A stretch of DNA of 64,000 bases from Acidimicrobiia bacterium. Lineage in GTDB: Bacteria; Actinomycetota; Acidimicrobiia; Spongiisociales; UBA11373. Both the position numbers and the translations under genes were made by a program. Location of the stretch: positions 2,874 through 66,873 of the forward strand of contig JAJCYA010000077.1 of NCBI GenBank assembly GCA_029263095.1, written 5' to 3'. Positions within the stretch are counted from its first letter, which is position 1, and the number at the start of each line of letters is the position of its first letter. Under the pieces are notes generated by a model. The model did not search any database and had not been told where the DNA came from. It was given only the letters and a program-made list of their open reading frames with translations. Below, one piece after another: positions 21,709 through 58,013 of the stretch.

Positions 21709-21807
21709 CGGAACCCTCCTTGTTGCTCCTCGGCGACCGCGGTGGCCGGGCCGGGGGAGGGGAGAGAGTCTACCAATCCACCCGCGACGGCCATCGGCCG
21801 GACCCTC

Positions 21808-21862
21808 TTGACACCTTGAATGTGGTGACATAGAGTTCTACCGACCGACTGACCGGTCGGTC
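21808..21862. promoter_or_regulatory. Consensus-like promoter (TTGACA-17nt-TAGAGT) plus a 7-bp inverted repeat (GACCGAC-n6-GTCGGTC), candidate TetR operator upstream of the tetR-bcr operon
   Basis: Seen directly at 21808-21836 and 21843-21862, about 20 nt before the SD/GTG of tetR. Confidence 0.45.
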
Positions 21863-25021: not shown

Positions 25022-25031
25022 GGTGCCACCC

Positions 25032-29696: not shown

Positions 29697-29701
29697 TCCT
29701 T

Positions 29702-30760: not shown

Positions 30761-30864
30761 CTTGACTTGGGCTCCTCTCCTGGGCCGGACCATGTTGGCA
30801 CAAGCTCCTGGGGATCCGATCGGCTGCCGACCAGCGATGGGACCGCTCCGGGTACTGTGCCCAG

Positions 30865-33182: not shown

Positions 33183-33929
33183 TCAGCTCGCGCCCAGGCT
33201 GCGCCCGCCGCATACGTACAGCACCTGACCGGTGACGTATGAGGCCTCATCGGAAGCCAGATACAGCACCGCATTGCCGATGTCATCGGGGGTCCCCACC
33301 CGTCGTAGCGGGATGGTCTTGACGAGACGTTCCTTGACCTCATCGTCGAGTCCCTGGAACAGCGGGGTATCGACCAATGCTGGGGCGATGCAGTTGGCGG
33401 TGATCTGGTATCGAGCCATCTCCAGCGCCAGGGTGCGAGTAAGGCTGATCACCGCTCCCTTGGATGCGGCGTAATTGGCCTGGCCGGGACCTCCGAGCCA
33501 TGCCCGCGATGAGATGTTGACGATGCGTCCGTGCTCCTGCTCCATCATGTGGGGAGCGGCGGCGCGGCAGGTGAGGAACTGCGACTTGGTGTTGACGCGC
33601 AGCACCTCGTCCCAGTTCTCTTCGCTCATCTTGGCGAGCCAACCGTCGCGGGCGATGCCGGCATTGTTGACGAGGATGTCCACCCGGTCGTGAGCGTCCA
33701 TCGCTCCGGCAATCAATGCCGCCGCACCGTCGGCAGTGCCGACATCTGAGGCGATACCCGTGGCGTCGATCCCCGCGCCGTGGAGACCGTCCACTGAATC
33801 CTGGACCCGATCCTCCACGAGGTCGTTGACGACGACCTTGGCCCCTGCAGCGCCCAAGACCCGGGCGATCCCCGCTCCGATGCCCTGGCCGGCACCGGTG
33901 ATGACCGCCACCCGATCCATTACGTTCAT
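33183..33929 (-). CDS. SDR-family oxidoreductase (FabG-like)
   Basis: TGAGQGIGAGIA, NNAGI and YAASKGAV motifs. Confidence 0.7.
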   Translation of the reverse strand: MNVMDRVAVITGAGQGIGAGIARVLGAAGAKVVVNDLVEDRVQDSVDGLHGAGIDATGIASDVGTADGAAALIAGAMDAHDRVDILVNNAGIARDGWLAKMSEENWDEVLRVNTKSQFLTCRAAAPHMMEQEHGRIVNISSRAWLGGPGQANYAASKGAVISLTRTLALEMARYQITANCIAPALVDTPLFQGLDDEVKERLVKTIPLRRVGTPDDIGNAVLYLASDEASYVTGQVLYVCGGRSLGAS

Positions 33930-33957: not shown

Positions 33958-34758
33958 CTAGCGGCCCTTGAACTCGGGGCTTCTCTTGTCGATGAATGCC
34001 TGGATGCCCTCTTGGCGGTCCTCGCTCGCCCGCAGGACGGCGTGGCTGGTCGACTCGAAGTCGAGTCCGGCCTCGATGTCGGTGTCGGCGGCGCGGTTGA
34101 TGAGCACCTTGATCCGATCCAGCGAGAGCGGCGCCTTGGCGGCGATTCCCTGAGCCATCGTCATGGCCTCGGCGAGAAGGTCGGCGTCCGGTACAACCCG
34201 ATTGACCAGACCCATCCGGTGCGCCTCGGCGGCGCTGTATCGCTCGGCCGTGAACATCATCTCCTTGGCGTATCCCGGTCCGACGAGGCGGGTGAGACGC
34301 TGGGTCCCCCCGGCACCGGGGAGACTTCCCACCTTGGCTTCGGGGAACCCGAGCTGGGCGCTCTCGGCGGCGATGCGGATGTCGCACGCGAGAGCCATCT
34401 CCATCCCGCCGCCCAGCGCATAGCCTTGGATCGCCACCACGACCGGGACATTCAGATTCTCGAAGCGCCCAAACACACTGCGCACCAGGATTCCCAACGG
34501 ATCGTGCACGGCGCCCGCCTCGTACTCGGCCGCCCGACTTTTGAGGTCGGCGCCCACACAGAACGCCTTTTCTCCGGCGGCGGCCAATACCACGGCTCGA
34601 ATGTCAGGATCGGCCTCGATCTCGTCGAGTAGACGGCCCATCGTGTGCAGCATGTCGGTCGTCATTGCATTCAGCGCTTGGGGTCTGTTGAGCGTCATCA
34701 CCGCAACTGCTCCGTCGCGCTCGAACAGGACCAGCTCTTCGAGGGTCTCTTCTGCCAC
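33958..34758 (-). CDS. Enoyl-CoA hydratase/isomerase (crotonase family)
   Basis: [24 protein letters not shown] and [18 protein letters not shown] motifs. Confidence 0.75.
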
Positions 34759-34766: not shown

Positions 34767-35969
34767 CTATCTCTCCGGGCCGGCGACGACGGCGCGGCCC
34801 ATCAGGTCTTCGATCTCGTCGTTGGTGAACTCGAACTCGACGAGTACTTCACGTGTGTGCTCACCCGGAATCGGCGGAGCCGAGAGGTTCGGGGGCCCAT
34901 CGTTGGCTGAGAGGCGCGCAGGAATGCGCGGCGATCGGACGGCTCCCGAGACCGGATGCTCAGTAGTGACAATCATCCCTCCCGACTCCACCTGTTCGGA
35001 TGTGATCAGTTCGGGGTAGGCGAGGATGGGGCCACACAGAATGTCGGCGGCCTCCAGGGTCTCGATCCACTCTGCGGTTGTGCGGGTGGCAAAGATGGGA
35101 GCCAGCACCGCGTTGAGGTCGGCTCGGGCCTCCACCCGCTTCCCGTTGTCTTCAAAGCGCGGGTCCTGCGCGAGATCGGGTAGTCCCAGAGCCTCACAGA
35201 GCGCCGGCCACCGCTTAGCGGTATAGGCAGCCACCATCACGTGTCCATCGGCGGTGGCATAGGCCTCGTTGGGTGCGGCGTATGGGGCGGCGCTGCCCAA
35301 ACGACGAGGTGTCTCCCCGCTGGCTAGGAACATGGAGAGTGGGACTACCTGGAACGCCAGTAGAGCGTCGAGGAGTGACACATCCACCCGCTGCCCCTTG
35401 CCGGTGCGCTCTCTGTCTAACAGGGCGGCAAGGATCGCCTGGGTCATAAACGCTCCGCCGGCCATATCGGCGGCGGGTACTCCCACCTTCACCGGCCCCG
35501 CGTCATCGGTGCCGGTCACGCTCATAATGCCGCCCATCGCCTGCGCGACGCCATCCACGCCGGGACGATCTCGCCAGGGGCCCTCCCGGCCGAAAGCCGA
35601 GATGGCTGCATAGATCAGGCCAGGGTTGCGGGCCGCCATGGAGTCGTATCCGATGCCGAGGCGGTCGGCTACACCGGGACGGAAACTTTCGAGCGCCACG
35701 TCGCATCGAGCGGCGAGGCGCAAGATCACCTCGCTCCCACCGTCTTGCTTGAGATCGGCCACGACGCTGCGCTTGTTGCGGTTCATCCCCAGGAACGCGG
35801 CGGCGGCACCTGCGACGAACGGTGGTCCCAGATTGCGACCCCACTCGCCTCCCGGCGGCTCGACCTTTATCACCTCGGCCCCGAGGTCGGCGAGGTGCAT
35901 GGCGCAGGTGGGGCCTGCCGCTCCCTGTGATAGATCGAGGATTCTCAACCCGGCGAGTGCCCTGCTCAA
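34767..35969 (-). CDS. Family III CoA-transferase (CaiB/BaiF)
   Basis: [33 protein letters not shown] at the N-terminus, conserved Asp region; ~400 aa. Confidence 0.75.
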
Positions 35970-36595
35970 CGCGTGACCTCCCCGGCTGCGGCCCGTTCGG
36001 TGTCTCGCGCTCCGAGTCCGCGCACTGCGGTGTCGGCGAATGTTGCTGCTATCTCGTCGGGGGCGTACTCCCCGGTGGGTCGGTAGCGACGGATGACGCT
36101 GTCACACATACCGAGAAGGGCCATCGTTGCCAACCCAGAGTCCTGCTCCAGGAACTCGCCGCGGTCGATACCTTCCTCGATCACCTTCTGGAAGAGCGAC
36201 TCGTATTCGCCCTTCTTTTTGCGGTGAGTCTCCATGAAGGTGGGGGAGAGGTACCGACTCTCCTCCGAGAAGCAGGCTACGTAATCCCTCTCTCTGATCG
36301 ACTCGACGGTGTGGAGCGTCAGAGCCCTATGGAGTCGCCCGGTGGCCGGGAGGTCCGACTGGGCGATCTCTCGCACGAGGGGGGTGACTCGGCTCATCGT
36401 CACTTCGATGATTTCGGCGAGCAAGGCCTGCTTGCTGGGGTAGTGGTGATACAGGCTCGATTTGGTGATACCGACGGCAGTTGCCAATGCCTGCATGCTC
36501 GTTCCGTTGAACCCCTTCTGGCGAAACAGGGTTGCGGCAGAGTCCCGGATCCGTTCCGCTGTTCCCGGCTCCTGCGCTGACTCCCGATTGATCAC
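35966..36595 (-). CDS. TetR-family transcriptional regulator
   Basis: IRDSAATLFRQKGFNGTSMQALATAVGITKSSLYHHYPSK HTH. GTG start overlaps the upstream stop (GTGA). The upstream 207 codons of the ORF were rejected. Confidence 0.6.
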   Translation of the reverse strand: MINRESAQEPGTAERIRDSAATLFRQKGFNGTSMQALATAVGITKSSLYHHYPSKQALLAEIIEVTMSRVTPLVREIAQSDLPATGRLHRALTLHTVESIRERDYVACFSEESRYLSPTFMETHRKKKGEYESLFQKVIEEGIDRGEFLEQDSGLATMALLGMCDSVIRRYRPTGEYAPDEIAATFADTAVRGLGARDTERAAAGEVTR

Positions 36596-37833
36596 GCAGA
36601 TCCGCCCAAGAGGGCGTGGATCTCTGGGTCGGCGAGCACATGGTCGCCCTTCTTGGCGACATCGAGGATGCTCTCCACCATCTGCTGTGTGCACTCGATC
36701 TGTCGCTTGGAGAGCCAGGCGACGACGTTGGCCTCGCCGCTCATCGGTCCCACTGTTATCTCTTGCTCCCGCCCGAGCATCTCGGAGGGCACGCCGCTGT
36801 AAATGCGATTGGCGAGCCAGGGGTCGCCGGTGCGCATGGCCTTTAGGACCGCGGCGGCATGGACCCCTGTGCTGGTCTCGAAGGCATCCTTCCCGATGGC
36901 AGGCGTGTTTCCCGGTATCGGGGTATCGGTGGCACGGGAGGCGGCAGAGGAGTAGCGGGGGAGAGTTGTGAGATCGTTGTCGATCCATCCCAAGAGCCGG
37001 AGATTGACCAACAGGGGCTCCATGGGCGTGTTGCCGACCCTCTCGCCGATGCCGATGGCGCAACCGTGAACCCGGTCTGCGCCGGCCGAGAGTGCGGTGA
37101 GCGAGTTGATGACGCTCAAGTGGCGATCGCGATGGCCGTGGTAGTCGATCTTGACGTCCTCGCCGGTGTCGGCCACCAACTCTTTGGCGAATTGAACCAG
37201 GCTGCGGACTCCCCATGGGCTGGCGTGACCGACAGTGTCCGAGAGGCAGATGCGGCGCGCCCCGGCCCCGATGGCCGCTGTGTACACACGTCGCAACACG
37301 TCGGGATGGGCACGGGTCGTATCTTCGGTGACGTACATCACAGTGAGGTCGTTCTCGCGAGCGAGGTGGACGGCCTTTTCGGTCGTCTCGAGTAGCCAGT
37401 CGACATCCCAGCCCTCGACGAACTGACGGATCGGGCTGGATCCGATGAAAACCGAAGCTTCTATTGGGAACCCTGCCCGCTGCTGAGCCTCGGCGATGGG
37501 GAGGATGTCGGCGGGATGGGTCCGACCGGCGCAGTTGGCCTCGATCGCCAGATCGGCGCGATCGATTTCCTCGGCCAAGCCCACCACATCGTTGAGCATC
37601 TGGTCGCCTGCACCCGGGTAGCCGATGTCGGCAAAGCGGATGCCGAGGGCGGCGATCTCATGGAGGATCTCGATCTTCTCGGGCAGAGAGGGTTGGCGCA
37701 CCGACGGGCTCTGCAGGCCGTCACGCAGGGTCTCGTCATCGAGTTCTACCTGAGTCGGTGCCGGGAGGTCTGCTTCGCCGATGAGATTCCAGTCGTGGAG
37801 AAGCTCCTGTTCCCGGTCCAGATCGTCCGCCAT
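36592..37833 (-). CDS. HMGL-like DRE-TIM synthase (2-isopropylmalate / citramalate / homocitrate synthase family)
   Basis: LRDGLQSP, HGHRDRHLSV and a (b/a)8 pyruvate-carboxyltransferase-like pattern. 413 aa short form without a LeuA regulatory domain. Confidence 0.65.
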   Translation of the reverse strand: MADDLDREQELLHDWNLIGEADLPAPTQVELDDETLRDGLQSPSVRQPSLPEKIEILHEIAALGIRFADIGYPGAGDQMLNDVVGLAEEIDRADLAIEANCAGRTHPADILPIAEAQQRAGFPIEASVFIGSSPIRQFVEGWDVDWLLETTEKAVHLARENDLTVMYVTEDTTRAHPDVLRRVYTAAIGAGARRICLSDTVGHASPWGVRSLVQFAKELVADTGEDVKIDYHGHRDRHLSVINSLTALSAGADRVHGCAIGIGERVGNTPMEPLLVNLRLLGWIDNDLTTLPRYSSAASRATDTPIPGNTPAIGKDAFETSTGVHAAAVLKAMRTGDPWLANRIYSGVPSEMLGREQEITVGPMSGEANVVAWLSKRQIECTQQMVESILDVAKKGDHVLADPEIHALLGGSA

Positions 37834-38015
37834 GGCGTCCTCCTTCGATCATTCCGTATCGGACCGACGCAGGACGACTCTGGTGGTACCCGTGCTGCGG
37901 GCGGCTTCTCCATGACGCCCGACCCCTCGATACTTCAGCGGCCGGGTGGCACGGCGAGTAGTCTACCGAACGGTCGGACGGCGCGTAGCTGGAGGCAACT
38001 GATGGAGGTTCGACG

Positions 38016-38444
38016 GTGACGACGGCGCAACCGGAGACGGTCCCGAAATCGTTCCGCCCCGTGGAATTCGAGGTCACGGCAGGGGGTGAGGGGTTCTTGC
38101 TGGGCAGTCGCTGCAGCAACTGTGGAGCTCACTTCTTTCCGGTACGGCAGGCGTGTTCCGGGTGTCTACACGCCGATCTGGAGACAGTCCGATTCTCGAC
38201 AACGGCGACGCTCTACACCTTCTCTGTAGTCCGCCAATCCACGCCGGACTTCGCCGTGCCCTATGCCCTCGGCTATGTCGATCTGCCGGAAGGGGTGCGG
38301 GTCATGGCACAGCTCACCGGCCGCGACCCTGAGGATTACCAAATCGGGATGGAGATGGAATTGGTGGTGGAGCCTTTTGGCGCAGATGAGGACGGCAACG
38401 AGATGACCGGCTACCGCTTCCAGCCCAAGGAGGGGTCCCAATGA
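38016..38444 (+). CDS. DUF35 Zn-ribbon/OB-fold protein (thiolase-associated)
   Basis: CSNCGAHFFPVRQACSGC Zn ribbon followed by an OB fold. Immediately upstream of and overlapping an SCP-x-type thiolase. Confidence 0.7.
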   Translation: MTTAQPETVPKSFRPVEFEVTAGGEGFLLGSRCSNCGAHFFPVRQACSGCLHADLETVRFSTTATLYTFSVVRQSTPDFAVPYALGYVDLPEGVRVMAQLTGRDPEDYQIGMEMELVVEPFGADEDGNEMTGYRFQPKEGSQ

Positions 38445-39583
38445 CCGGCGTATACGTTCTGGGGGTGGGGATGACCCGGTTCGGAAAGCACCCCGACAAG
38501 GATGCGGCCGACCTCGGTTCGGCTGCCTTCCAGGAGGCCGTGACCGATGCCGGCATAGAGCCTCGACAGATCGAAGCGGCCTACTGCGGGCATGTGTTCC
38601 AGGGGATGGTCACCGGACAGCGCATTCTTGCTCAAGTGGGTCTGGCAGGGCTTCCCCTATCGAATGTCGAGAATGCCTGCAGCAGCGGAGCCACCGCAAT
38701 TCGCGAAGCTTCGCTTGCCATCCGCGCCGGGGAACACGACGTGGTGATGGCGGTGGGTACCGAGCACCTGACGACCAAGTTCCGAGGCGCCCTGACTCCC
38801 GACCCCAGCGACCCCGAGGCCGCCGTCGGCGCCACCATGCCGAGCGTGTATGCAATGCGGGCGCGTCGCTACATGGAGGAGTTCGGCATGACCAGACGTC
38901 AATTGGCGCTGGTGGCCGTCAAGAACAAGCGAAATGCTGCGGCCAACCCGCTGGCCCACTTTCGCAAGGAGATCACGGTTGAGGATGTGTTGGAGTCCCG
39001 TCCGATTGCCGACCCGCTACGGCTCCACGACTGTTCGCCCGTTACCGACGGAGCGGCCGCTGTCGTCCTAGTCAGCGACCGGGCTGTCAAGAAGCTGGGC
39101 AACGGTCGGGCGATCCGTCTGGCCGCATCGACCCTGTTCACCGGAACGGTCGATGTGGAGCCGACGACGATGACATTCGAGCCGCTGACCCACAAGACGG
39201 CTCTTGCTGCCTACGAAAGGGCTGGCATCGGACCAGAGGATGTAGATTTCGCCGAGGTTCACGACTGCTTCAGCATCGCTGAAGTGCTGCGGGTAGAGGG
39301 TCTCGGGCTGTTCGAGCGGGGGGCTTACCCCGGGGCGGTTGAGCGAGGAGAGGCCGACATCGGCGGCCGACTTCCCATCAACCCCAGCGGTGGTCTACTC
39401 GGGAAGGGCCATCCGCTGGGAGGCACCGGCGTCGCTCAGGTCGTGGAGCTGGTGCGACAGCTGCGCGGAGAGGCCGGCGACCGACAGATCGAAGGAGCCA
39501 AGGTGGGTCTGGCCCACTGCCGTGGTGGCAAGGCCGTAGGTATCGAAGGTGCCGCCTGCACGGTGCAGGTGCTGGTGAAGTGA
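38441..39583 (+). CDS. Thiolase-like protein, SCP-x/nonspecific lipid-transfer-protein type
   Basis: NVENACSSGATAI (active-site Cys region) and C-terminal thiolase motifs; ~380 aa. Confidence 0.75.
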   Translation: MTGVYVLGVGMTRFGKHPDKDAADLGSAAFQEAVTDAGIEPRQIEAAYCGHVFQGMVTGQRILAQVGLAGLPLSNVENACSSGATAIREASLAIRAGEHDVVMAVGTEHLTTKFRGALTPDPSDPEAAVGATMPSVYAMRARRYMEEFGMTRRQLALVAVKNKRNAAANPLAHFRKEITVEDVLESRPIADPLRLHDCSPVTDGAAAVVLVSDRAVKKLGNGRAIRLAASTLFTGTVDVEPTTMTFEPLTHKTALAAYERAGIGPEDVDFAEVHDCFSIAEVLRVEGLGLFERGAYPGAVERGEADIGGRLPINPSGGLLGKGHPLGGTGVAQVVELVRQLRGEAGDRQIEGAKVGLAHCRGGKAVGIEGAACTVQVLVK

Positions 39584-40722
39584 GCGGCGAGCAGGTTGCG
39601 CTGCCCTTCACGCTGATGCGGGGAGGAACATCGAAGGCGGTGTTTCTGCGCGGTGCCGACCTGCCTCCATCAGGTGCTCTACGCGACCGTATGATCTTGG
39701 CGTTGTTCGGCAGTCCCGATCCCCGGCAGATAGATGGTCTGGGAGGCGCGGACATCCTCACCAGCAAGCTGGCCATCATCGATCCCCCCTCTCGACCCGA
39801 TGTGGACCTGAACTACACCTTTGCGCAGGTGAGTGTCTCGGAACCGGTAGTGGATTACGACATCATCTGCGGAAACATCTCGGCCGCCGTCGGTGCCTAC
39901 GCAGTGGATGAGGGCTTGGTGTCGCCCGAAGAATCCGAGGCGACGGTGCGGATCTACAACACGAACACGGATCGCGTCTTCCGGGCGATGGTTCCGGTGC
40001 AGCGTGGCCGGGCCGCCATCGACGGTGACTGCGTGATCGATGGTGTCCCCGGTAGCGGGGCACCCATTGCCCTGGACCTCAGCGGCACGTACGGCAGCGA
40101 AACCGGAGCACTGCTCCCGACGGGCAATCCACTCGACGTGCTGGAAACCGGGATCGGATCCGTGGAGGTGTCGATCGTGGATCTCGCCAGCCTGTGTGTC
40201 TTCTTTCACGCTTCGGCGGTGGGGCTCGACGGAACTGAAGGACCGGATGCGGTGAGCGGTGATCATGTGGCTGCCGTAGTCGCCGTGAAGGAGGCGACTT
40301 CCAAGCTCCTCGGCCTGGCTCCCGATGCATTGACTCCAATACCGGCGGCGGTTGCGGCGCCGACCGACTACGTCGGCTTCGGGAACGGCGACCCCGTCGC
40401 CACAGCCGACGTCGATCTGGTGGCGCGAGTCATCGGGGGAAGGCCCCCGATGCTGCACAAGGCGTATCCCGGCGCTTCGGCAGCCTGCACAGCCGTGGCT
40501 GCTCGCATTCCCGGCACTGTTGTGGCTCAAGTCGTTCAGCAGCTCGAGCCCGGCACGCTGCGTATCGGCCACACCAGTGGCGTCATGAGCGTTGGCGTTG
40601 CCGTCGCACCCGATGGAGACACCTGGCAGGTGCAGCGCGCCTCCTACGACCGGACGGCTCGACGTTTGGCCGAGGGCACAGCGTTTGTTCGCCGGGCCGA
40701 AGCCGGCGCGGACGGCCGATGA
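39580..40722 (+). CDS. PrpF/AcnD-accessory (DUF453) family isomerase
   Basis: MRGGTSKAVF N-terminal signature of the PrpF/Mii/GalD family. GTG start overlaps the thiolase stop. Confidence 0.65.
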   Translation: MSGEQVALPFTLMRGGTSKAVFLRGADLPPSGALRDRMILALFGSPDPRQIDGLGGADILTSKLAIIDPPSRPDVDLNYTFAQVSVSEPVVDYDIICGNISAAVGAYAVDEGLVSPEESEATVRIYNTNTDRVFRAMVPVQRGRAAIDGDCVIDGVPGSGAPIALDLSGTYGSETGALLPTGNPLDVLETGIGSVEVSIVDLASLCVFFHASAVGLDGTEGPDAVSGDHVAAVVAVKEATSKLLGLAPDALTPIPAAVAAPTDYVGFGNGDPVATADVDLVARVIGGRPPMLHKAYPGASAACTAVAARIPGTVVAQVVQQLEPGTLRIGHTSGVMSVGVAVAPDGDTWQVQRASYDRTARRLAEGTAFVRRAEAGADGR

Positions 40723-41189
40723 CCGACGGCATCCTCACCCTCACGGTGAACGGCGAAGCCCGTCGTCTTGTCGCTGAGGGGCAGCGCACTCTTCTCGAGT
40801 TGCTGCGCGACGATCTGGGTCTGACGGGGACCAAGCACGGGTGCGACCTGGGTGAGTGCGGCACCTGCACCGTTCTGGTCGACGGTAAGCCGGTGCTCTC
40901 CTGCCTGACTCTGGCGACGCAGACGCGGGGGAGCGAAGTGACCACCGTCGAGGGGTTGGCCGATGGATTGGTTCCCCATCCGTTGCAGAAGGCATTCGCC
41001 GAACTGGGGGCGGCCCAGTGCGGGTACTGCACGCCGGGGATGCTGGTCACGGCGGCGGCGTTGCTCGAGCGCAATCCGCAACCCGACACCGACGAGATCA
41101 GGCAAGCCCTGGCCGGGAATCTCTGTCGCTGCACCGGGTACATCAAGATCCTCGATGCAGTGAAACTCGCCGCGGGTGCGGTCCGGTGA
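40719..41189 (+). CDS. hcrC: [2Fe-2S]-binding small subunit of the xanthine dehydrogenase/CO dehydrogenase family, HcrC-like
   Basis: CDLGECGTCTV (plant-type cluster) and CGYCTPGM...CRCTGY (second cluster). Confidence 0.75.
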   Translation: MTDGILTLTVNGEARRLVAEGQRTLLELLRDDLGLTGTKHGCDLGECGTCTVLVDGKPVLSCLTLATQTRGSEVTTVEGLADGLVPHPLQKAFAELGAAQCGYCTPGMLVTAAALLERNPQPDTDEIRQALAGNLCRCTGYIKILDAVKLAAGAVR

Positions 41190-43546
41190 CGGGCAACGTA
41201 GTGGTCGGTCGTCCGGGTCCGCGAGTCGATGCCGCCGATCAGGTAACCGGCCGGACCACCTTCGCAGGCGACATCGATCGTTCAGGGATGCTGATCGGCG
41301 GCCTCCTCGAGTCGTCGCAGGCGCACGCCCGGATTCTCAGCGTCGATACTTCGGCTGCCGAGGCACTTCCAGGTGTCCGTGCTGTACTCACAGGAGCGGA
41401 TCTTCCGGTTCCTTACGGGATCCTTCCCGTAAGCCAAGACGAGCACGCGCTCGCGGTGGACAAGGTTCGATATGTGGGGGAGCCGGTGGCGGCCGTTGCT
41501 GCCGTGGATGCCGATTCGGTGGAAGAGGCCTTGTCTCGGATCGTGGTCGAATACGAGCCGCTCGACGCGGTTGCGACCATCGAAGAGGCCCTGGCTTCGG
41601 GAACCCGAATCCACGGCGAAGGCGAAGGCGACAACGTGCACCGCCGCGCTGCCCTCGAGTTTGGAGACGTCGGTTCGGGTTTCGATGCCGCCCATCTGGT
41701 GCGAGAGGATGTCTACTTCTTCGGCGGCAACACTCACGCCGCACTGGAACAGCACGCGGCGGTGGCGTCCGCCGGACTCGACGGGCGGGTGACGCTGTGG
41801 TCTTCCACGCAGGTGCCGCATTATCTGCATCGCACTCTCGAGAAGGTGCTCGAAATGCCCGCCGGTCGGATCCGGGTGATCGCCGCCCCCGTCGGCGGTG
41901 GATTCGGCGGCAAGACCGATCCCTTCAGTCATGAGATCGTTGCCGCCAAGCTGGCGATGGTCACCGGACGCCCGGTCAAGATCGTTCTGTCGCGCCAGCA
42001 GGTCTTCTACGCCCACAGGGGCAGGCATCCGGTGCTGATGTGGGTCAAGACCGGATTCGATCCTGAGGGCCGGATCACAGCCATGCACTTCAAGTCATTC
42101 CTCGACGGGGGTGCCTACGGCTCCTATGGGGCCGCCTCCCTCCTCTACACCGGGTCGCTCCAAACCTCCACTTACCGGATCCCCAACTACAAGTTCGAAG
42201 GCGTGCGGGTGTTCACCAACAAGCCACCTTGTGGGCCCAAGCGGGGGCACGGAACTCCCCAGCCCCGGTTTGCACTCGAATGCCAGCTGGACGAGGCGGC
42301 GGCCGATCTGGGTCTCGATCCGGTGACCATTCGGCGCCGCAATCTGGTGGAACCCTTCTCGATGACGGTCAATCACCTTCGGATCACCAGCTGCGGCATC
42401 GAGGAGTGCCTGGATCGTGCCGTTGAAGCCTCCGACTTCTCCGCCAAGCACGGCAACCTCCCGGAGGGCAAGGGGATCGGCCTCGCTGCCGGCGCCTACC
42501 TGTCTGGAGCCGGTCTCCCCATCTACTGGAACGATATGCCGCAGTCCGAGGTGGAGATCAAGGTGGATCGAGGTGGGGGGGTCACGGTGTTCTCGATGGC
42601 TACCGACGTGGGCCAGGGCTCGACGTCGGTGCTGGCGACGATCGTCGCCGAAGTACTGGGCCTCGAACCGAGCGACCTAGCGATGGTCACTGCCGATACC
42701 GATCTGACACCGGTGGACCTCGGGTCATATTCGAGTCGGGTCACCTTTATGGCGGGAAACGCCGCCAAGGAAGCCGCGGAAGGGATCCGAGACCGGGTGA
42801 TTGCGGCTGTAGCCGACGAATTGGGGCTTTCAGCAGACGTCGTGGTGGTGGCGGGAGGAAGGGTCGGCTCAGCGAACGACGAAGACAAGACTCTCTCGTG
42901 GGCCGACGCGGTCCGGGCTGCCATCGTCCGGGGCGGGTCCCTGACGGGCTCAGGCTCCTACCGGGCGCCAGATCTCGCCGGTCCGTATCGGGGATCCGGA
43001 GTTGGTATTTCACCCGCATACTCGTACTCGGTGGCGGTGGTAGAGGTCGACTGCGATTCTGAGACCGGTGAGGTGCGAGTGGCAAAGGTGTGGCTGGCCC
43101 ACGACATCGGCCGGGCACTAAACCCCCTCCTGGTCGAGGGCCAGATGGAAGGCGGGGTCTACATGGGGCTGGGGGAGGCACTATTCGAGGAGCAGGCGTT
43201 CCGGCACACCCTCCACCGGGGCCCGTCACTGCTCGACTACAAGCTGCCGACCTTTCTCGAGATGCCACCGGTGCAGTCGATTCTGGTCGAAACCGACGAT
43301 CCTGAGGGGCCGTTTGGTGCCAAGGAGGTCGGTCAGGGTCCACTGCTGCCGGTCATACCGGCACTGGCCAATGCGGTCCACGACGCCCTGGGTGTTCGCG
43401 TCGCTGAGGTGCCGATCACCCCCGACAAGGTGGTCGCCGCCCAGCGAGACATCAAACGGGGAGGGGATGGCCGCTTTGGGCCCCGATCCGTGCCCGACTA
43501 CGACTTCGGGCGACTCACCCGAGTCGATCCCCCTGGGGAGTTCTAG
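41186..43546 (+). CDS. hcrA: Molybdopterin-cofactor large subunit (XDH/CODH family), HcrA-like 4-hydroxybenzoyl-CoA reductase alpha
   Basis: 787 aa from a GTG overlapping the hcrC stop. Typical MoCo-subunit motifs (GGGFGGK, etc.). Confidence 0.7.
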   Translation: MTGNVVVGRPGPRVDAADQVTGRTTFAGDIDRSGMLIGGLLESSQAHARILSVDTSAAEALPGVRAVLTGADLPVPYGILPVSQDEHALAVDKVRYVGEPVAAVAAVDADSVEEALSRIVVEYEPLDAVATIEEALASGTRIHGEGEGDNVHRRAALEFGDVGSGFDAAHLVREDVYFFGGNTHAALEQHAAVASAGLDGRVTLWSSTQVPHYLHRTLEKVLEMPAGRIRVIAAPVGGGFGGKTDPFSHEIVAAKLAMVTGRPVKIVLSRQQVFYAHRGRHPVLMWVKTGFDPEGRITAMHFKSFLDGGAYGSYGAASLLYTGSLQTSTYRIPNYKFEGVRVFTNKPPCGPKRGHGTPQPRFALECQLDEAAADLGLDPVTIRRRNLVEPFSMTVNHLRITSCGIEECLDRAVEASDFSAKHGNLPEGKGIGLAAGAYLSGAGLPIYWNDMPQSEVEIKVDRGGGVTVFSMATDVGQGSTSVLATIVAEVLGLEPSDLAMVTADTDLTPVDLGSYSSRVTFMAGNAAKEAAEGIRDRVIAAVADELGLSADVVVVAGGRVGSANDEDKTLSWADAVRAAIVRGGSLTGSGSYRAPDLAGPYRGSGVGISPAYSYSVAVVEVDCDSETGEVRVAKVWLAHDIGRALNPLLVEGQMEGGVYMGLGEALFEEQAFRHTLHRGPSLLDYKLPTFLEMPPVQSILVETDDPEGPFGAKEVGQGPLLPVIPALANAVHDALGVRVAEVPITPDKVVAAQRDIKRGGDGRFGPRSVPDYDFGRLTRVDPPGEF

Positions 43547-44511
43547 TGCGCCTCCCGGCCTTCGGCTACTTGGAACCCTCCACCGTTGAGGACGCGGTCG
43601 AGTTGCTGGCGATCAATCCGGGGGCCGAGATCATTGCCGGGGGGACCGACCTGATCCCGAACATGAAGCGTCGCCAGATCAGTCCGTCGACGGTGATAGC
43701 GCTAGGCACGATCGATGGGATGAGCGGGATCCAAGTCGATGACGATGGTGGCGTGACGATCGGGGCGCTGACCCTGCTGCACGACTTGGCTGCTTCGTCG
43801 GAGGTTCCGGCCGCACTTGCATCGGCTGCTGCCGAGATCGGGTCGCCTCAGATACGGAACGTGGCAACGGTCGGTGGCAATCTCTGTCTGGACACGCGGT
43901 GCGGCTTCATCAATCAGACAGAGTCGTGGCGTCTGGCATCGGGTCTTTGCCTCAAGGCGGATGGCGACGTGTGCTGGGTGGCTCCCAAGGGAGAAGAGTG
44001 CGTTGCAGTCTCATCCTCCGATCTGGCACCGGTTACGGTCGCTCTCGATGCCGAGGTGGGCCTAGTCGGACCAGATGGATCACGCACCCTGGCCGCCTCC
44101 GATCTGTATCGCTCCGACGGTATCGATCACCTCGGGAAGTCGGCGGATGAGATTGTCACAGCTCTCACGGTGCCGCCTCGCCCGCGGTGGCGGACGGGCT
44201 ACCGCAAACTGCGCCGCAGGGGGACGATCGACTTCCCGATTCTCGGCGTCGCCGTGGCCGTCGAGGTGGCGGACGACGGCAGGGTCAAGGATGCGCGAAT
44301 CGTTCTCGGTGCGATAGCGCCTGCACCTATGCGAATGCGTCAGGCCGAGGAGGCCCTGGTGGGGAGCCGACTCGACGCCGAGGCGATAGAGCGCGCTGCC
44401 GAACTGGCTGCCAAGCCGGTACGCCCCTACGACAACGTGGACCTGGGGTCTCGCTACCGCAAGTGGATGGCACCGGTGTTCATCACAAGGGCGTTGCAGG
44501 ACCTCCGGTAG
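43546..44511 (+). CDS. hcrB: FAD-binding medium subunit with a Cys-rich insertion (HcrB-like)
   Basis: CoxM-like FAD domain plus the inserted NLCLDTRCGFINQTESWRLASGLCLKADGDVCWVAPKGEEC (5 Cys in 42 aa), consistent with the extra [4Fe-4S] loop characteristic of 4-hydroxybenzoyl-CoA reductase beta subunits. Confidence 0.7.
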   Translation: MRLPAFGYLEPSTVEDAVELLAINPGAEIIAGGTDLIPNMKRRQISPSTVIALGTIDGMSGIQVDDDGGVTIGALTLLHDLAASSEVPAALASAAAEIGSPQIRNVATVGGNLCLDTRCGFINQTESWRLASGLCLKADGDVCWVAPKGEECVAVSSSDLAPVTVALDAEVGLVGPDGSRTLAASDLYRSDGIDHLGKSADEIVTALTVPPRPRWRTGYRKLRRRGTIDFPILGVAVAVEVADDGRVKDARIVLGAIAPAPMRMRQAEEALVGSRLDAEAIERAAELAAKPVRPYDNVDLGSRYRKWMAPVFITRALQDLR

Positions 44512-44563: not shown

Positions 44564-45883
44564 TCAAGCCCTCTTTACGCACCGTGCCGAGTACTCGGCA
44601 GTCGCGCTCTTGCGCACCCACCCTCCATCCTCGTCGAGAAGGATCGGGCTGCCCCCTCCGGCAGGGTTCTCGAATAGGACGCACTTGCAGTCCTCACATG
44701 CTTCGCCGCGAGGCTGTGCCCTAACCATTACCCGGCGACCGTCGGTGTCGGTGACGGACTGCTGATCTACCCGACAAGCCCTCGCCTCGCAGTACTCCCA
44801 GTCGTTGCCCTGATCGTCGGTGAATGTCCCGCTGCCTGCCGCGGTCCCACCGAGATCGGAGGCTAGGTAGATACCGCCCCCGACGAGGATCAGTCCGAGC
44901 AGCACGAGGAAGAAGACAACCCAGGGGAACCCATCGCCGCCGGTGTCGATTCGAGTGTCGTTTCCGAGGTCGGTGGGCGCAGCAGTTGCCGCCGTGGTTG
45001 CCGCCGCGGTCGTGGTCGTCGTCGTAGTGCTCGTTGTGGTGGAACTCGTGGTGGTTGTCGCCGCCACCATGGGACCGAGGACGGGCCGGGTGTCGAGACT
45101 CTTCAGCGGCTCACCGACCCGCGGATAGGTCTGAGCGGCCACGGTGTCGGGACTGCTCGGATTGGAGGCCATCGTCTTGAAGATTCCACCCCGAACTCCC
45201 TCATAGTCCACCATGCCGGTGAAGGCGAACACGGTTGCGTGCGGGAAGTGGGCTACTCGCGAACCGGCGACATCCCCATCGAAGCCTTCGGGGGTCCAGT
45301 GAACGAGGTCCTGCCACTTGCCCTGGTTCCATCCCAAGATGAGGGCGTCGCCCAGGCCGTCGAAGAGGTCGGCCTCGACGAAACCGACGAAGCCACCGTT
45401 GCCACCCAGGAATATCTCAAAGTTGTACATATCGTTCGGCTCATCGGGGAACGGGGCGTCATACCCCAAAACGAACATGTCAAAGCCGTTTGCGTAGGCA
45501 TCGCCGCTGCCGTCGTCATTGGCTCCACAGCGCACGGTGTACCCGTCGTGGTCGCCGCACGAGAATGAACCACCTGATCCGAACGCGCCGCCGACACCTC
45601 CGTCGAGCGCTTCGGGGGCGACCCAGCTGAATCCGAAATGGTTGATGGACACCGGCAGATCGACCGTACCGGGTCCGCCGAACGGACTAAACGGATCGGC
45701 CGGCGGGACGTCCGTGGCCCCGCCGTTCTCGTCGATGCGGTTCCACAGACCCGGTGTTCCCAGAGACCGGTCGACGGCATCTCCTATCGCGATATCTCCC
45801 GCCGCAGCAATAGCGGGGATGAACCCGGCAACGAGACCGACGGCCAACACCAACGCAAGCTTTCGCAAACGTGAAATATGCAC
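44564..45883 (-). CDS. Bitopic membrane protein: signal peptide, extracellular Gly/Asp-rich domain, poly-Thr linker, TM helix, Cys-rich cytoplasmic tail
   Basis: Start near (V/I)HISRLRKLALVLAVGLVAGFIPAIAAAG with SD AGGAGGG. TTTTSSTTTSTTTTTTT linker and FPWVVFFLVLLGLILVGGGIYLA TM. Start codon uncertain. Confidence 0.45.
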   Translation of the reverse strand: MHISRLRKLALVLAVGLVAGFIPAIAAAGDIAIGDAVDRSLGTPGLWNRIDENGGATDVPPADPFSPFGGPGTVDLPVSINHFGFSWVAPEALDGGVGGAFGSGGSFSCGDHDGYTVRCGANDDGSGDAYANGFDMFVLGYDAPFPDEPNDMYNFEIFLGGNGGFVGFVEADLFDGLGDALILGWNQGKWQDLVHWTPEGFDGDVAGSRVAHFPHATVFAFTGMVDYEGVRGGIFKTMASNPSSPDTVAAQTYPRVGEPLKSLDTRPVLGPMVAATTTTSSTTTSTTTTTTTAAATTAATAAPTDLGNDTRIDTGGDGFPWVVFFLVLLGLILVGGGIYLASDLGGTAAGSGTFTDDQGNDWEYCEARACRVDQQSVTDTDGRRVMVRAQPRGEACEDCKCVLFENPAGGGSPILLDEDGGWVRKSATAEYSARCVKRA

Positions 45884-46007
45884 CCCTCCTGAATTGGAGG
45901 AAACTCTATAGGGGTTGCTCGTACTACCCACGGCCGTTTGGTCGGTCGACGGTCGACGGTCGACGGTCGAGTCTCCTACGCGACGGATCGAGAGCCGTCG
46001 AACGAAT

Positions 46008-46469
46008 CTAGGAAGGTGTCGGGTCGAGACCACCAACCGCCTGGGCGTTGTCCAGGTTCTGCAGCCGGACCTGACCGCGCGCCGCAAGCTTGCCGTCGGA
46101 ATCCCGCGTGACGGTCACCTGCCACAACTGCTGGCGACGACCGCGATGGATCGGCGTCGCCTCGATCGAGAGTCGATCGGAACGCACCGGCCGGAGAAAA
46201 TCGGTCGTGTTGGAGACGCCGACCGCCCCCACGAGTCCTTGGGTGATCGCCCAGTAGGCCGCTCCGACGGATGCGGTGGCTTCGATCACGGTGCAGTAGA
46301 CGCCCCCGTGGACGAGTCCGTACGGCTGCTGATGCTTGGACGTGATTCCCAGCGAGGCCACTACCAGGTCGGGGGCGATCTCCTCGAACTCCAATCCGAC
46401 TTCACCGTTGAAGCCGTAGTTGAGGTCCTGCTCGAGTTCTGGTGGTTGTTGGTGCGCGATAGAGCGCAA
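46008..46469 (-). CDS. PaaI/hotdog-fold acyl-CoA thioesterase family protein
   Basis: GLVHGGVYCTVIEATASVGA hotdog motif; 153 aa. Confidence 0.6.
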   Translation of the reverse strand: MRSIAHQQPPELEQDLNYGFNGEVGLEFEEIAPDLVVASLGITSKHQQPYGLVHGGVYCTVIEATASVGAAYWAITQGLVGAVGVSNTTDFLRPVRSDRLSIEATPIHRGRRQQLWQVTVTRDSDGKLAARGQVRLQNLDNAQAVGGLDPTPS

Positions 46470-46516: not shown

Positions 46517-46840
46517 CTATCCGCGACTGCTGCAGGTGACGCAGCGCGAGGTAGCGGGGAGTGCCTCTTGTCGGGGTTCGCCTATGCGTTCTCCGCAGTC
46601 GTCACAGGTTCCGTATGACCCGTCGGCGAGCTTGTCCAGGGCCCTGTCGATGTCGGCAATCGATCCAGCGATGGATCGGGCGGTGGCGGTGGTGGACAGT
46701 CGTTCCACGGCCTCCGAGGTTCCATCGCCGATTCGTTTGCCAAACGCCACCGTCGATCCCGGCGGCGGTGGTTCGGTCAGCCGCTCGAGTTCGGCGGCCA
46801 GTTCGGCGCGCCGGACTTGGAGGCGCTCGGCGATCGACAT
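46517..46840 (-). CDS. DksA/TraR-family C4-type zinc-finger protein
   Basis: C-terminal GSYGTCDDCGERIGEPRQEALPATSRCVTCSS (CxxC-n17-CxxC). Start trimmed to MSIAERL. Confidence 0.6.
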   Translation of the reverse strand: MSIAERLQVRRAELAAELERLTEPPPPGSTVAFGKRIGDGTSEAVERLSTTATARSIAGSIADIDRALDKLADGSYGTCDDCGERIGEPRQEALPATSRCVTCSSRG

Positions 46841-46939
46841 CTGGTGAGCGTACGCATCATCTGGGATCACCACAGCTGTTGCGACCGAACGGCTCCGCGG
46901 CGTGAGATAACGCGGGGTCTTGGTACCGTCGGACGCGAC

Positions 46940-48319
46940 ATGCTGATTCGCCGGATGTTTGCTGTTCTCACGGCGCTCGCTGTCGTCTCGACGGCTTGTG
47001 CCGATGCTGCAACGGACCCATCCACCTCGGCACCGGTTGCGACGACGACCAGCACTACCTCTCAGGCCGCGGGGGGAGACACGACGGCAGTGTCGTCGCA
47101 GTCGTTCGTCAGCGGTGAGGTGGTGCAACTCGACCTCCCGCGATCTGATGCATTGGTCACCGACGCCGACATTGCTGCGGTTGTCGCCGCCGACACCGCC
47201 TTGGGTCTCGATCTGCTCAGGGTCGCCATAGGGTCGCAGAACGTGATGGTTTCACCGTATTCGGTCGCTACCGCGCTCAGCATGCTGTATCCCGGGGCCA
47301 GGGGTCAGACGGCGTCGGAAATCGCTCGGGTGTTGCACCTCGAGGTGGAGGATTCGACGCTCCATGAGGTCCGGAACCACATCGATTCTGTTCTGAATGC
47401 ACCTCCGCCACCGTTGGGTGACGATGACGCACGCGTGCCCTTTGCGATCCGACCGGCTAATTCGGCTTGGGGTCAGGGTGGCTACCCGTTCTTGGACGGC
47501 TACCTAGAGGTCCTCGCCAGCCACTATGGAGCCGGCCTTCACTTGCTCGACTTCGTCGGGGATCCCGACGGTGCCACCGAGACGATCAATCGCTGGGTCG
47601 AGGAAGTCACCGAAGACCGCATTCAGGATCTGATCCCGAGTGACGCGATCGACGTTCTGACCCGCCTCATCCTGGTGAATGCCATCTGGTTCAAGGCGAA
47701 TTGGGCCACGATGTTCGACCCCGCTGCGACCGCAAACGGACGCTTTGCGCTGTTGGACGGCAACGAGGTGTCGGTGCCCCTGATGCACTCCTCCATCCGT
47801 ACCGGTTTTGCGGACAACGGGTTATTCGAGGCGGTGCTACTTCCTTATGCCGGTGATGCGGCGATGGTCGTTGCGCTTCCGCGATCCGGGTCTCCCTCCG
47901 ACCTGTTGGAGCAACTCGACGCTGAGGATTTCCAGATCGAGTGGGGTGACTTTCAAGTAGATCTGACCCTCCCGCGCTTTGAGTTCGAGGCTGAGTTGGC
48001 TCTCAAGGAAACGCTGCAGTCTCTCGGAATGTTGGCAGCGTTTGTGCCACCCGGTAGTGGATCCGAGCGCGAAGCCGATCTGACCGGTATCACCGCCGTC
48101 AGGGAGCTCTATGTATCGGACGCCTTCCACAGGACGTTTATCGCGGTCGATGAGAACGGTACCGAGGCGGCCGCAGCCACCGCGCTCATCTCTGGCGTGA
48201 CATCGCTGCCGATGCCGGCGACCTTTGCTGCTGACCGCCCCTTCCTGTTCTGGATCGAACACGCCAGTACCGGTGAGGTTCTCTTCTTGGGGCAGGTCAC
48301 CAATCCCCTCGAGAACTGA
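46940..48319 (+). CDS. Serpin (serine protease inhibitor), lipoprotein
   Basis: MLIRRMFAVLTALAVVSTAC lipobox. Serpin motifs NAIWFKANW and the hinge GTEAAAATA followed by ADRPFLFWI. Confidence 0.8.
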   Translation: MLIRRMFAVLTALAVVSTACADAATDPSTSAPVATTTSTTSQAAGGDTTAVSSQSFVSGEVVQLDLPRSDALVTDADIAAVVAADTALGLDLLRVAIGSQNVMVSPYSVATALSMLYPGARGQTASEIARVLHLEVEDSTLHEVRNHIDSVLNAPPPPLGDDDARVPFAIRPANSAWGQGGYPFLDGYLEVLASHYGAGLHLLDFVGDPDGATETINRWVEEVTEDRIQDLIPSDAIDVLTRLILVNAIWFKANWATMFDPAATANGRFALLDGNEVSVPLMHSSIRTGFADNGLFEAVLLPYAGDAAMVVALPRSGSPSDLLEQLDAEDFQIEWGDFQVDLTLPRFEFEAELALKETLQSLGMLAAFVPPGSGSEREADLTGITAVRELYVSDAFHRTFIAVDENGTEAAAATALISGVTSLPMPATFAADRPFLFWIEHASTGEVLFLGQVTNPLEN

Positions 48320-49910: not shown

Positions 49911-50177
49911 TGGCCGAGCCTACGAGACCGTGGCGGCGGGGAACACTCGGCAGCCAGAGAGACAAGAAAAATGGAACGCATAGCGCCGCTGCCGTGTTGT
50001 AATGCGTGAAGCGGAGGTGCCGGACACGGGTCGGTCTTCCCCCACTCCCCCATCCCGGTCCGGCAGCCTCCGCTTTACCGCCTCCCGCCATTCGTTGTCC
50101 CCGCGCTGCCCCTTGTCTCGGAACCGGACGTCAATACAATCTGGCGTACACGGGTTCCAGAGGAGTTGAACGTCTCA

Positions 50178-55351: not shown

Positions 55352-55391
55352 GGACCCGACGGTAGCGCCGATCTGGCTACGCTCGCCGCTC

Positions 55392-57961: not shown

Positions 57962-58013
57962 CGACACCCCCCTCAATAGAGTCGCGTCTGCCGTCTCACA
58001 CGGACTTCGACGC

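Follow-up and report, generated by a model that had tools for sequence, protein, structure and literature searches.

Which compound could feed a 4-hydroxybenzoyl-coenzyme A (CoA) reductase-like enzyme in an acidimicrobial genome, and is that enzyme a 4-hydroxybenzoyl-CoA reductase, or 4-HBCR, at all? The question is raised by three genes resembling hcrCAB at positions 40719-44511 of a 64,000-nucleotide stretch of DNA (the window) from an Acidimicrobiia bacterium (GenBank assembly GCA_029263095.1, contig JAJCYA010000077.1, positions 2,874 to 66,873 of the forward strand). An earlier reading of this DNA (the original prediction) had taken them for a 4-HBCR that channels phenol or 4-hydroxybenzoate into a benzoyl-CoA pathway encoded upstream. 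The analysis presented here points to a different source of substrate: hcrCAB probably encodes a ferredoxin-driven 4-hydroxybenzoyl-CoA dehydroxylase fed by a co-transcribed BbsAB-like thiolase.

The hcrCAB gene block and its closest relatives

Three open reading frames (ORFs) lie on the plus strand where the original prediction had placed them, in the order small, large and medium subunit:

40719-41189, + strand: hcrC-like small subunit; 156 amino acids (aa); Pfam Fer2 and Fer2_2; 8 Cys, two [2Fe-2S] sites
41186-43546, + strand: hcrA-like large molybdopterin subunit; 786 aa with a GTG start at 41186; Ald_Xan_dh_C, MoCoBD_1 and MoCoBD_2
43546-44511, + strand: hcrB-like medium subunit, binding flavin adenine dinucleotide (FAD); 321 aa; FAD_binding_5 and CO_deh_flav_C

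The genes overlap one another and the gene before them, with ATGA at 40719-40722 (PrpF-family gene/hcrC), GTGA at 41186-41189 (hcrC/hcrA) and TAGTG at 43544-43548 (hcrA/hcrB), which bears out the predicted C-A-B order with overlapping starts and stops. The longest ORF for hcrA would begin at 41018, inside hcrC; homologues all begin at the position of 41186.

For all three subunits the top NCBIfam family is 4-HBCR. HcrA scores 862.9 bits against TIGR03194 (4-HBCR alpha; cut-off 994.55), the next family being XdhA at 519, and HcrB scores 276.8 bits against TIGR03195 (4-HBCR beta; cut-off 404.55) with the whole 321-position profile covered, loop included. HcrC has TIGR03193 (4-HBCR gamma) as its best family at 190 bits (cut-off 257.8). 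Among PDB structures the best match for HcrA is 1RM6_A (629 bits, next structure 302) and for HcrB 1RM6_B (196 bits, next structure 121). The small subunit does not discriminate between families, matching the nicotinate dehydrogenase small subunit at 174 bits and 1RM6_C at 172. In both NCBIfam and PDB comparisons the scores of CO and xanthine dehydrogenase models are two to three times lower than those of 4-HBCR, which places the large subunit beside HcrA and apart from CO, xanthine and aldehyde dehydrogenases, in line with the original prediction. Chance matches are excluded by E-values of 1e-57 to 1e-188.

The cysteine-rich loop of HcrB

The feature that had drawn attention to this block is an insertion in the medium subunit:

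43885-44013, + strand: HcrB insertion, residues 114-156, 43 aa; C114 and the predicted [4Fe-4S] ligands C119, C135, C143 and C152

When HcrB is compared with loop-less FAD subunits (e.g. 4ZOH_B), the match breaks into residues 3-113 and 157-317. Against Thauera aromatica HcrB (1RM6_B) the insertion aligns without gaps to residues 117-159, and its five Cys pair with C117, C122, C138, C146 and C155. Thauera C122, C138, C146 and C155 are reportedly the [4Fe-4S] ligands (Unciuleac et al. 2004), a numbering that agrees with this alignment. On these sequence grounds the insertion is a homologue of the Thauera [4Fe-4S] loop, and a cluster is predicted for it. The homology proposed originally thus stands, with all four ligand Cys in register, as do the five Cys in the motifs quoted (NLCLDTRC, GLC, VCW and EEC); the length given, 42 residues, is one residue short. 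The loop is indeed absent from CoxM and XdhB, and also from PaoB and Ucd. One loop-less comparator, a Sinorhizobium xanthine dehydrogenase (XDH)-family enzyme, has just 2 Cys in its FAD subunit.

An exhaustive search of HcrB against 1.84 billion cluster representatives returned 1047 proteins at E <=1e-30. The loop alignment draws on the best 150 of these, with one representative per cluster at 50% identity. None of these 150 lacks any of the four ligand Cys, so that at least 150 clusters are loop-bearing; over the whole alignment every one of the 152 sequences has Cys at the four ligand positions, and 123 have the fifth Cys. Thauera HcrB would stand near the bottom of the list of HcrB relatives. 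A search of a plasmid collection gave no loop-bearing HcrB, and its best alpha matches were ordinary XDH-family proteins. The loop is the mark of a large family of xanthine oxidase (XO)-type enzymes that are probably ferredoxin-linked, with canonical 4-HBCR as one branch. With at least 150 clusters carrying it, the loop is not diagnostic of substrate, contrary to what had been supposed.

A sister clade with glutamine in the active site

The large subunit was compared by means of family-wide active-site motifs and through the best 120 homologues each of the window HcrA and of Thauera HcrA. One codon is of particular interest:

43334-43336, + strand: Gln717 codon of HcrA, at the position of the XO-family catalytic Glu (Thauera E726), placed by motif alignment

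The active-site motif reads GAKEVGQGP in the window and GAKEASEGM in Thauera; nicotinate dehydrogenase, CoxL and PaoC have GAKG(V/I/L)GE, which holds the catalytic Glu. The best 120 relatives of the window HcrA, all from metagenome assemblies, are 66-100% identical to it. Where a taxon is named it is usually Acidimicrobiia or another group of Actinomycetota; Armatimonadota, Firmicutes and Proteobacteria are represented by one bin each. The best 120 relatives of Thauera HcrA stand apart from these and share 42-44% identity with the window HcrA. Between the two clades 150 columns are invariant and common to both, and 50 are fixed but different. A neighbour-joining tree of the large subunit, rooted on a single outgroup (a plasmid-borne XDH-family protein), places the window clade beside the Thauera clade. 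The window enzyme belongs to a sister clade of canonical 4-HBCR with Gln in place of the catalytic Glu, and its chemistry may differ in detail.

Several observations weigh against taking the block for a 4-HBCR. All three subunits fall below the NCBIfam 4-HBCR equivalog cut-offs, and identity to the Thauera enzyme, the only one structurally characterised, is 41.9% for HcrA and 38.1% for HcrB. Of the 120 closest relatives 119 have Gln at position 717, where 119 of 120 Thauera-clade proteins have Glu; substitutions of this XO-family catalytic Glu abolish activity in xanthine dehydrogenases. No assayed member of the Gln-type clade was found in the literature searched. Nor does the loop settle what the substrate is, given the great size of the beta family that carries it. 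Clade members are annotated by the NCBI pipeline only as 'xanthine dehydrogenase family protein', a generic name explained by scores below the equivalog cut-offs; the JGI annotation is 4-HBCR. Pfam scans of essentially all sizeable ORFs of the 64 kb, on which the gene content given here is based, found no XdhC-type chaperone in the window, and a six-frame motif search of it found no ferredoxin with a CxxCxxCxxxCP motif. Of the 4-HBCR identity first given to these genes, the HcrCAB-like character holds; the scores, the moderate identities and the change from Glu to Gln qualify the rest.

The clade itself also offers a point in favour. HcrA relatives at 67-69% identity from other phyla occur with an IclR regulator, hcrCAB, a PaaK-type CoA ligase and aromatic-acid-type ABC transporters, the ligase gene adjoining hcrB. 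At one locus in an Armatimonadota bin (L003, 20785-22144) Gln-type hcrCAB has as neighbours a PaaK-type ligase gene together with paaA/C- and paaD-like genes for aerobic phenylacetyl-CoA degradation. Such an aerobic-pathway partner is odd for an enzyme that is oxygen-sensitive in Thauera.

Operon partners and the divergent gene block

The hcrCAB genes are the 3' end of a chain of six genes joined by overlapping stops and starts (DUF35, thiolase, PrpF-family protein, hcrC, hcrA, hcrB). A second group, divergent from this operon, lies on the minus strand:

38016-38444, + strand: DUF35/zinc-ribbon OB-fold subunit, BbsA-like; Pfam zf-ChsH2 and OB_ChsH2_C; best PDB match 7PXP_A (BbsA)
38441-39583, + strand: SCP2-type thiolase, BbsB-like; best PDB match 7PXP_C (benzoylsuccinyl-CoA thiolase), 280 bits, next 240
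39580-40722, + strand: PrpF-family protein, 3-methylitaconate delta-isomerase-like; Pfam PrpF; GTGA overlap with the thiolase stop, ATGA with hcrC
36592-37833, - strand: HMGL-like protein, isopropylmalate/homocitrate synthase type; Pfam HMGL-like; motifs LRDGLQ, HGHRD and GIGERVGN
35966-36595, - strand: TetR-family regulator; TetR_N and TetR_C_24; 209 aa, start inferred from an existing gene call (L001)
34767-35969, - strand: family III CoA-transferase, dicarboxylate type; Pfam CoA_transf_3
33958-34758, - strand: enoyl-CoA hydratase; Pfam ECH_1
33183-33929, - strand: short-chain dehydrogenase, BbsD-like; best of 212 PDB matches BbsD 7PCS_B, 236 bits, full length
31401-33168, - strand: aconitase-family dehydratase subunits (NCBIfam), LeuC-like (31900-33168) and LeuD/DmdB-like (31401-31907)

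The DUF35 protein has BbsA as its sole NCBIfam match (85 bits, cut-off 250), and the thiolase reaches 316 bits against BbsB, below the cut-off of 750. For the BbsD-like dehydrogenase, other PDB matches are the (3R)-hydroxyacyl-CoA dehydrogenase 2ET6_A, at 231 bits for an alignment that spans just part of the query, and enzymes of the FabG type, none above 200 bits. The PrpF-family protein matches 3G7K, the 3-methylitaconate isomerase (Mii), at 348 bits, followed by the hypothetical protein 2H9F at 204 and the methylaconitate isomerase PrpF at 202. With other characterised isomerases (PrpF, oxalomesaconate) at no more than 202 bits it is much nearer Mii; NCBIfam, which holds no Mii model, gives the oxalomesaconate tautomerase and PrpF models, both below cut-off. 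Both dehydratase subunits pass their cut-offs (LeuC-like 557 bits against 385 for the aconitase/isopropylmalate dehydratase large subunit; LeuD/DmdB-like 150 against 109). The nearest NCBIfam families of the CoA-transferase, succinate-glutarate CoA-transferase and succinyl-CoA:mesaconate CoA-transferase, are both below cut-off, and the best families of the HMGL-like protein, 2-isopropylmalate and homocitrate synthases, are far below theirs. The HMGL-like protein was also considered as a lyase acting in the reverse direction. This was rejected, as the GIGERVGN motif is that of Claisen-condensing synthases, whose reaction is practically irreversible. An ORF at 37516-38019 (+ strand, 167 aa), whose stop overlaps the DUF35 start (GTGA), has no family match and is uncalled in the public contig; it is probably no gene.

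Conservation of the module across loci

Related loci were collected by a single-protein scan of species genomes, which gave 7 loci, and by an alignment-based metagenome scan that extended the set. About 25 public loci, with isomerase identities of 57-86%, repeat the order DUF35-thiolase-isomerase-hcrCAB, and the divergent block of synthase, CoA-transferase, hydratase, dehydrogenase and LeuCD genes is present in these wherever the contig extends. Taxon-labelled loci are Acidimicrobiia or Actinomycetota bins, except one labelled Kiloniellaceae. At several of them (L008, L023, L024 and L026) genes for benzoyl-CoA reductase (BCR) and dch/had/oah genes adjoin the module.

Some loci lack hcrCAB. L027 (10001-13400) is collinear with L023 (10001-17200) but lacks hcrCAB, the isomerase gene there being followed directly by had-oah-dch. 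The difference would fit a role of hcrCAB as an add-on for a hydroxylated substrate. In more distant loci (L033-L039 and L043), where isomerase identity is 51-62%, the thiolase pair and the isomerase are retained and hcrCAB is absent; CoA-transferase, hydratase and dehydrogenase genes are mostly present, BCR-like genes stand alongside in L033 and L035, and in some of these loci synthase and LeuCD genes are missing within 10 kb.

At 13 loci 71 other flanking ORFs were compared, and the sole Pfam families to recur among them are 2-oxoacid:ferredoxin oxidoreductase domains. Domains of acyl-CoA dehydrogenases were seen a single time in that set, and there was no glycyl-radical family among the 25 families listed of 54. 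The oxidoreductase genes form a five-gene block (L002, 518-5214; L006, 13472-18602; L023, L024 and L027, about 1700-6850) that is absent from the window. One L002 oxidoreductase passes the cut-off for the alpha subunit of indolepyruvate (arylpyruvate):ferredoxin oxidoreductase (IorA, 663 against 651 bits), and a second, from KorAB in the same block, is of the KorA type (565 against 411). Some related loci have a PaaK-type ligase or UbiD-family gene within 10 kb.

Mii-like genes occur further afield, at about 46% identity in L048-L056 and in L064, L067, L068, L074, L075, L090 and L092. In these unrelated metagenomes they pair with a thiolase/dehydrogenase/CoA-transferase/hydratase set or with LeuCD-like genes, a pattern suggestive of a broader, uncharacterised family of 'itaconate-type' beta-oxidation pathways.

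Benzoyl-CoA pathway genes and the rest of the window

Genes for benzoyl-CoA degradation lie upstream, as the original prediction had them:

27841-30880, - strand: dch-, oah- and had-like genes of the lower benzoyl-CoA pathway (NCBIfam)
22539-26662, + strand: four-gene class I BCR-like set in bcrCBAD order; two HGD-D and two BcrAD_BadFG proteins (Pfam)
20638-21831, - strand: HisC-family aminotransferase, candidate aromatic; NCBIfam hisC 292 bits, cut-off 277; putative member of the system

Oah (555 bits, cut-off 464) and Had (434.5, cut-off 339) pass; Dch (213.5) is below its cut-off of 292.5. The BCR-like set has BcrC, BcrB, BcrA and BcrD as best NCBIfam families, all far below both the Thauera-type and the bzd-type cut-offs (BcrC 248 against 421). 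It is kept at 77-87% identity beside the module in L008, L024 and L026, and may represent a divergent actinobacterial lineage of aryl-CoA reductases. A TetR gene also lies in this region upstream of hcrCAB; a homologue of the aminotransferase is found 2 kb downstream of the isomerase gene in L033.

Two further genes are set among these. A hemerythrin-domain gene (30865-31416, + strand) between had and the LeuD-like gene is kept at this position in L006-L011 and L016 (73-82% identity), and its product could be an O2/redox sensor or a protector of oxygen-sensitive enzymes. The second short-chain dehydrogenase (27140-27856, - strand), beside dch, is 41-44% identical to the BbsD-like orthologues of the loci; it may act as a 3-hydroxypimelyl-CoA dehydrogenase or serve as a BbsC-like partner.

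Downstream of hcrB come unrelated genes, among them those for a secreted Thr-rich protein and a serpin. The protein at 44564-46087 (- strand, 507 aa) has no Pfam match and a long Thr/Ser/Ala-rich linker, and a bacterial serpin follows at 46817-48319 (+ strand; Pfam Serpin 307 bits). Two SufB/D-family genes lie at 50166-51584 (+ strand) and 57582-59246 (+ strand). Typical of Actinobacteria and Archaea, the NucS endonuclease encoded at 55110-56057 (+ strand) fits an actinobacterial host, in line with the assignment of the closest loci to Acidimicrobiia. At the left end are an ORF with a C-terminal T4 gp19 tail-tube domain (851-2476, - strand), a 1001-aa ORF without Pfam match (3665-6670, - strand) and a HipA-family toxin kinase (9159-10442, + strand), which may be remnants of a contractile-tail element or prophage.

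Proposed function and origin of the substrate

From the architecture, relatedness and gene context described above we infer which cofactors and electron donor the enzyme uses, in which direction it runs, and what its substrate is and where that comes from. Low-potential reduced ferredoxin would pass electrons to the extra [4Fe-4S] cluster predicted, by homology with Thauera, at HcrB C119, C135, C143 and C152. From there they would travel via FAD and both [2Fe-2S] clusters of HcrC to HcrA, at whose molybdenum cofactor an aroyl-CoA, most likely 4-hydroxybenzoyl-CoA, would lose its para-hydroxyl as water. The BbsAB-like thiolase would split 4-hydroxybenzoylsuccinyl-CoA into 4-hydroxybenzoyl-CoA and succinyl-CoA, supplying the substrate in situ with no need for a 4-hydroxybenzoate-CoA ligase. 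The benzoyl-CoA produced would enter the class I BCR-like reductase and the Dch/Had/Oah steps encoded 10-20 kb upstream, and ferredoxin could be regenerated by 2-oxoacid oxidoreductases such as those accompanying the module in other loci. A thiolase-fed enzyme is the simplest reading because hcrCAB is translationally coupled to the thiolase and the cassette is absent from an otherwise identical locus.

How the 4-hydroxybenzoylsuccinyl-CoA itself would arise can be answered only tentatively. One possible answer is a route by which tyrosine and phenylalanine are converted through arylpyruvates to aroyl-CoA, with hcrCAB as the last step and with neither alpha-oxidation nor a glycyl-radical enzyme. 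The HisC-type aminotransferase would make the arylpyruvate from tyrosine or phenylalanine, and the isopropylmalate-synthase-like enzyme would join 4-hydroxyphenylpyruvate and acetyl-CoA to 2-(4-hydroxybenzyl)malate, from which the LeuCD-like dehydratase would form the benzylmaleate. The isomerase would then move the double bond to give 4-hydroxyphenylitaconate (of the benzylidenesuccinate type), compare dimethylmaleate/methylitaconate in Eubacterium barkeri. Bbs-like steps could follow, carried out by the family III CoA-transferase (succinyl-CoA-dependent), the hydratase, the BbsD-like dehydrogenase and the BbsAB-like thiolase. Thiolysis would yield 4-hydroxybenzoyl-CoA with succinyl-CoA regenerated, and Gln-type HcrCAB would then remove the hydroxyl. 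At the loci without hcrCAB (L027, L033-L039) the same route could run from phenylpyruvate straight to benzoyl-CoA. Within this scheme the Gln-type active site would, equally tentatively, mark a distinct mechanistic subclass of XO-family reductases.

Such an arylpyruvate route would explain why no BbsG-type dehydrogenase or fumarate-adding enzyme is found near the Bbs-like genes, and why hcrCAB is optional. It is weakened by those hcr-less loci with no synthase and LeuCD genes nearby and by the loose link to the aminotransferase. The arylpyruvate oxidoreductase of related loci could equally serve a parallel arylacetyl-CoA route, which also counts against it. The literature searched gave nothing relevant on benzylmalate/phenylitaconate routes, on HBCR in Acidimicrobiia or on anaerobic conversion of tyrosine to 4-hydroxybenzoyl-CoA.

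The best surviving alternative to a thiolase-fed 4-hydroxybenzoyl-CoA dehydroxylase, though a rather unlikely one, is that HcrCAB is an HBCR-like paralogue and not a 4-HBCR, acting on another para-hydroxylated CoA thioester or another hydroxybenzoyl-CoA (e.g. protocatechuyl-CoA). The pathway itself offers two candidates, 4-hydroxybenzoylsuccinyl-CoA and the vinylogous para-hydroxy thioester 4-hydroxyphenylitaconyl-CoA. The sub-equivalog scores and the 50 fixed differences, catalytic Glu to Gln included, are what one would expect of a paralogue, as is the great diversity of the loop-bearing family, and hcrCAB is set among pathway genes with no ligase beside it. The family is also more versatile than formerly assumed, Ucd being a second XO-family dehydroxylase, with a non-CoA substrate (PMC12771579). 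However, 4-HBCR is by far the closest characterised enzyme and 150 columns are invariant across both clades. The relatives at 67-69% identity, moreover, sit beside aryl-CoA-ligase-type genes without Bbs-like genes, which fits a substrate derived from free hydroxybenzoate.

An unlikely source of substrate is the one originally predicted, in which a canonical 4-HBCR funnels phenol (through phenylphosphate and 4-hydroxybenzoate) or free 4-hydroxybenzoate activated by a CoA ligase. It agrees with the HBCR-like enzyme, the benzoyl-CoA pathway genes upstream and the PaaK-type ligase or UbiD-family gene near some related loci. Within the 64-kb window, to which the search was confined, however, Pfam scans found no AMP-forming (aryl-CoA) ligase, no UbiD-family or phenylphosphate carboxylase and no phosphoenolpyruvate-utilising phenylphosphate synthase, and the conserved, translationally coupled partners of hcrCAB are a thiolase and an isomerase. 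This part of the original prediction is accordingly not upheld.

It is less probable again that the Bbs-like genes serve fumarate addition to p-cresol or toluene, with 4-hydroxybenzylsuccinate beta-oxidised to 4-hydroxybenzoyl-CoA and then passed to HcrCAB. Degradation of p-cresol by fumarate addition has been described for Desulfobacterium cetonicum, and BbsA, BbsB and BbsD are the best structural homologues of the window proteins. A 2025 genomic study of marine-sediment UBA5794 Acidimicrobiia took bbsA and bcrBC as signs of anaerobic toluene degradation (PMC12008989). Yet Pfam scans of the 64-kb window found no glycyl-radical enzyme and no BbsG-type acyl-CoA dehydrogenase, neither is recurrent among the 71 flanking ORFs of 13 loci, and fumarate addition leaves the conserved isopropylmalate-synthase-like, LeuCD-like and methylitaconate-isomerase-like genes unexplained.

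An ordinary oxidative hydroxylase of the xanthine, CO or aldehyde dehydrogenase type, mis-assigned by homology, is most improbable: the small subunit is non-discriminating and the NCBI name generic, but the [4Fe-4S] loop absent from CoxM, XdhB, PaoB and Ucd is present, the general-base Glu required for hydroxylation is missing, and the models for CO and xanthine dehydrogenases reach scores two to three times lower.

Significance

To our knowledge 4-HBCR is one of only two XO-family enzymes shown to run backwards as dehydroxylases, and the sole one reported with an extra [4Fe-4S] cluster. The call of hcrCAB itself is unsurprising and one that KEGG-style pipelines make already; what is novel and testable is the Glu-to-Gln clade, how broad the loop family is, and the conserved thiolase/isomerase/synthase context. 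The loop-bearing subunit defines a very large, mostly uncharacterised family, and the widespread Glu-to-Gln sister clade gives direct access to the workings of the reverse reaction. The enzyme of marine-type Acidimicrobiia is tied to a Bbs-like beta-oxidation set together with synthase, dehydratase and isomerase genes, and these conserved genes add up to a chemically complete candidate route from aromatic 2-oxo acids to benzoyl-CoA. If the arylpyruvate route is true, 'bbs' and 'hcr' markers in sediment metagenomes, at present read as degradation of toluene, cresol or phenol, could signal amino-acid catabolism.

Comparison with known systems

Thauera aromatica HcrCAB (1RM6/1SB3) and Rhodopseudomonas palustris HbaBCD have the same three subunits in the same C-A-B gene order. 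The Thauera enzyme is the best match for the window alpha and beta subunits, its HcrB has an insertion of the same length with four [4Fe-4S] ligand Cys in register, and both enzymes are linked to a benzoyl-CoA degradation cluster. The window enzyme differs from it in an identity of only 42% and 38%, in Gln717 for Glu726, in 50 clade-fixed positions and in scores below the equivalog cut-offs. Unlike the Thauera and R. palustris clusters, the window has no adjacent 4-hydroxybenzoate-CoA ligase, a neighbour typical of known HcrCAB/HbaBCD clusters and not strictly defining; it has a thiolase/isomerase operon and an Acidimicrobiia-type actinobacterial host.

The urolithin C dehydroxylase Ucd of Enterocloster bolteae (UcdCFO/Ucdh) is likewise a three-subunit XO-family enzyme, and removes a phenolic hydroxyl para to an electron-withdrawing carbonyl (PMC11760930, PMC12771579). 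It is without the [4Fe-4S] loop and retains the catalytic Glu (E741); it works with NADH on a non-CoA substrate, and its identity to 4-HBCR is about 33% (PMC11760930, PMC12771579). The window enzyme has the loop and lacks the Glu.

Among the Bbs enzymes (BbsAB 7PXP, BbsCD 7PCS, BbsH, BbsEF, BbsG), BbsA, BbsB and BbsD are the best structural matches for the DUF35 protein, thiolase and dehydrogenase of the window, which also has a family III CoA-transferase and a crotonase-fold hydratase. In contrast to the Bbs pathway, the window has no BbsG-type dehydrogenase or benzylsuccinate synthase, a single dehydrogenase in the operon instead of the BbsC/BbsD pair, BbsA and BbsB scores under the NCBIfam cut-offs, and additional isomerase, LeuCD-like and synthase-like genes. 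The isomerase and dehydratase lead to Eubacterium barkeri, where nicotinate fermentation employs Mii (3G7K) and the dimethylmalate dehydratase DmdAB; the window has other neighbours and no nicotinate genes. The PrpF-family protein of the window is nearest Mii and the small dehydratase subunit falls in the LeuD/DmdB family. Compared with Mii, the substrate proposed here would be an aryl-substituted maleate/itaconate, and the reaction would run towards the itaconate form.

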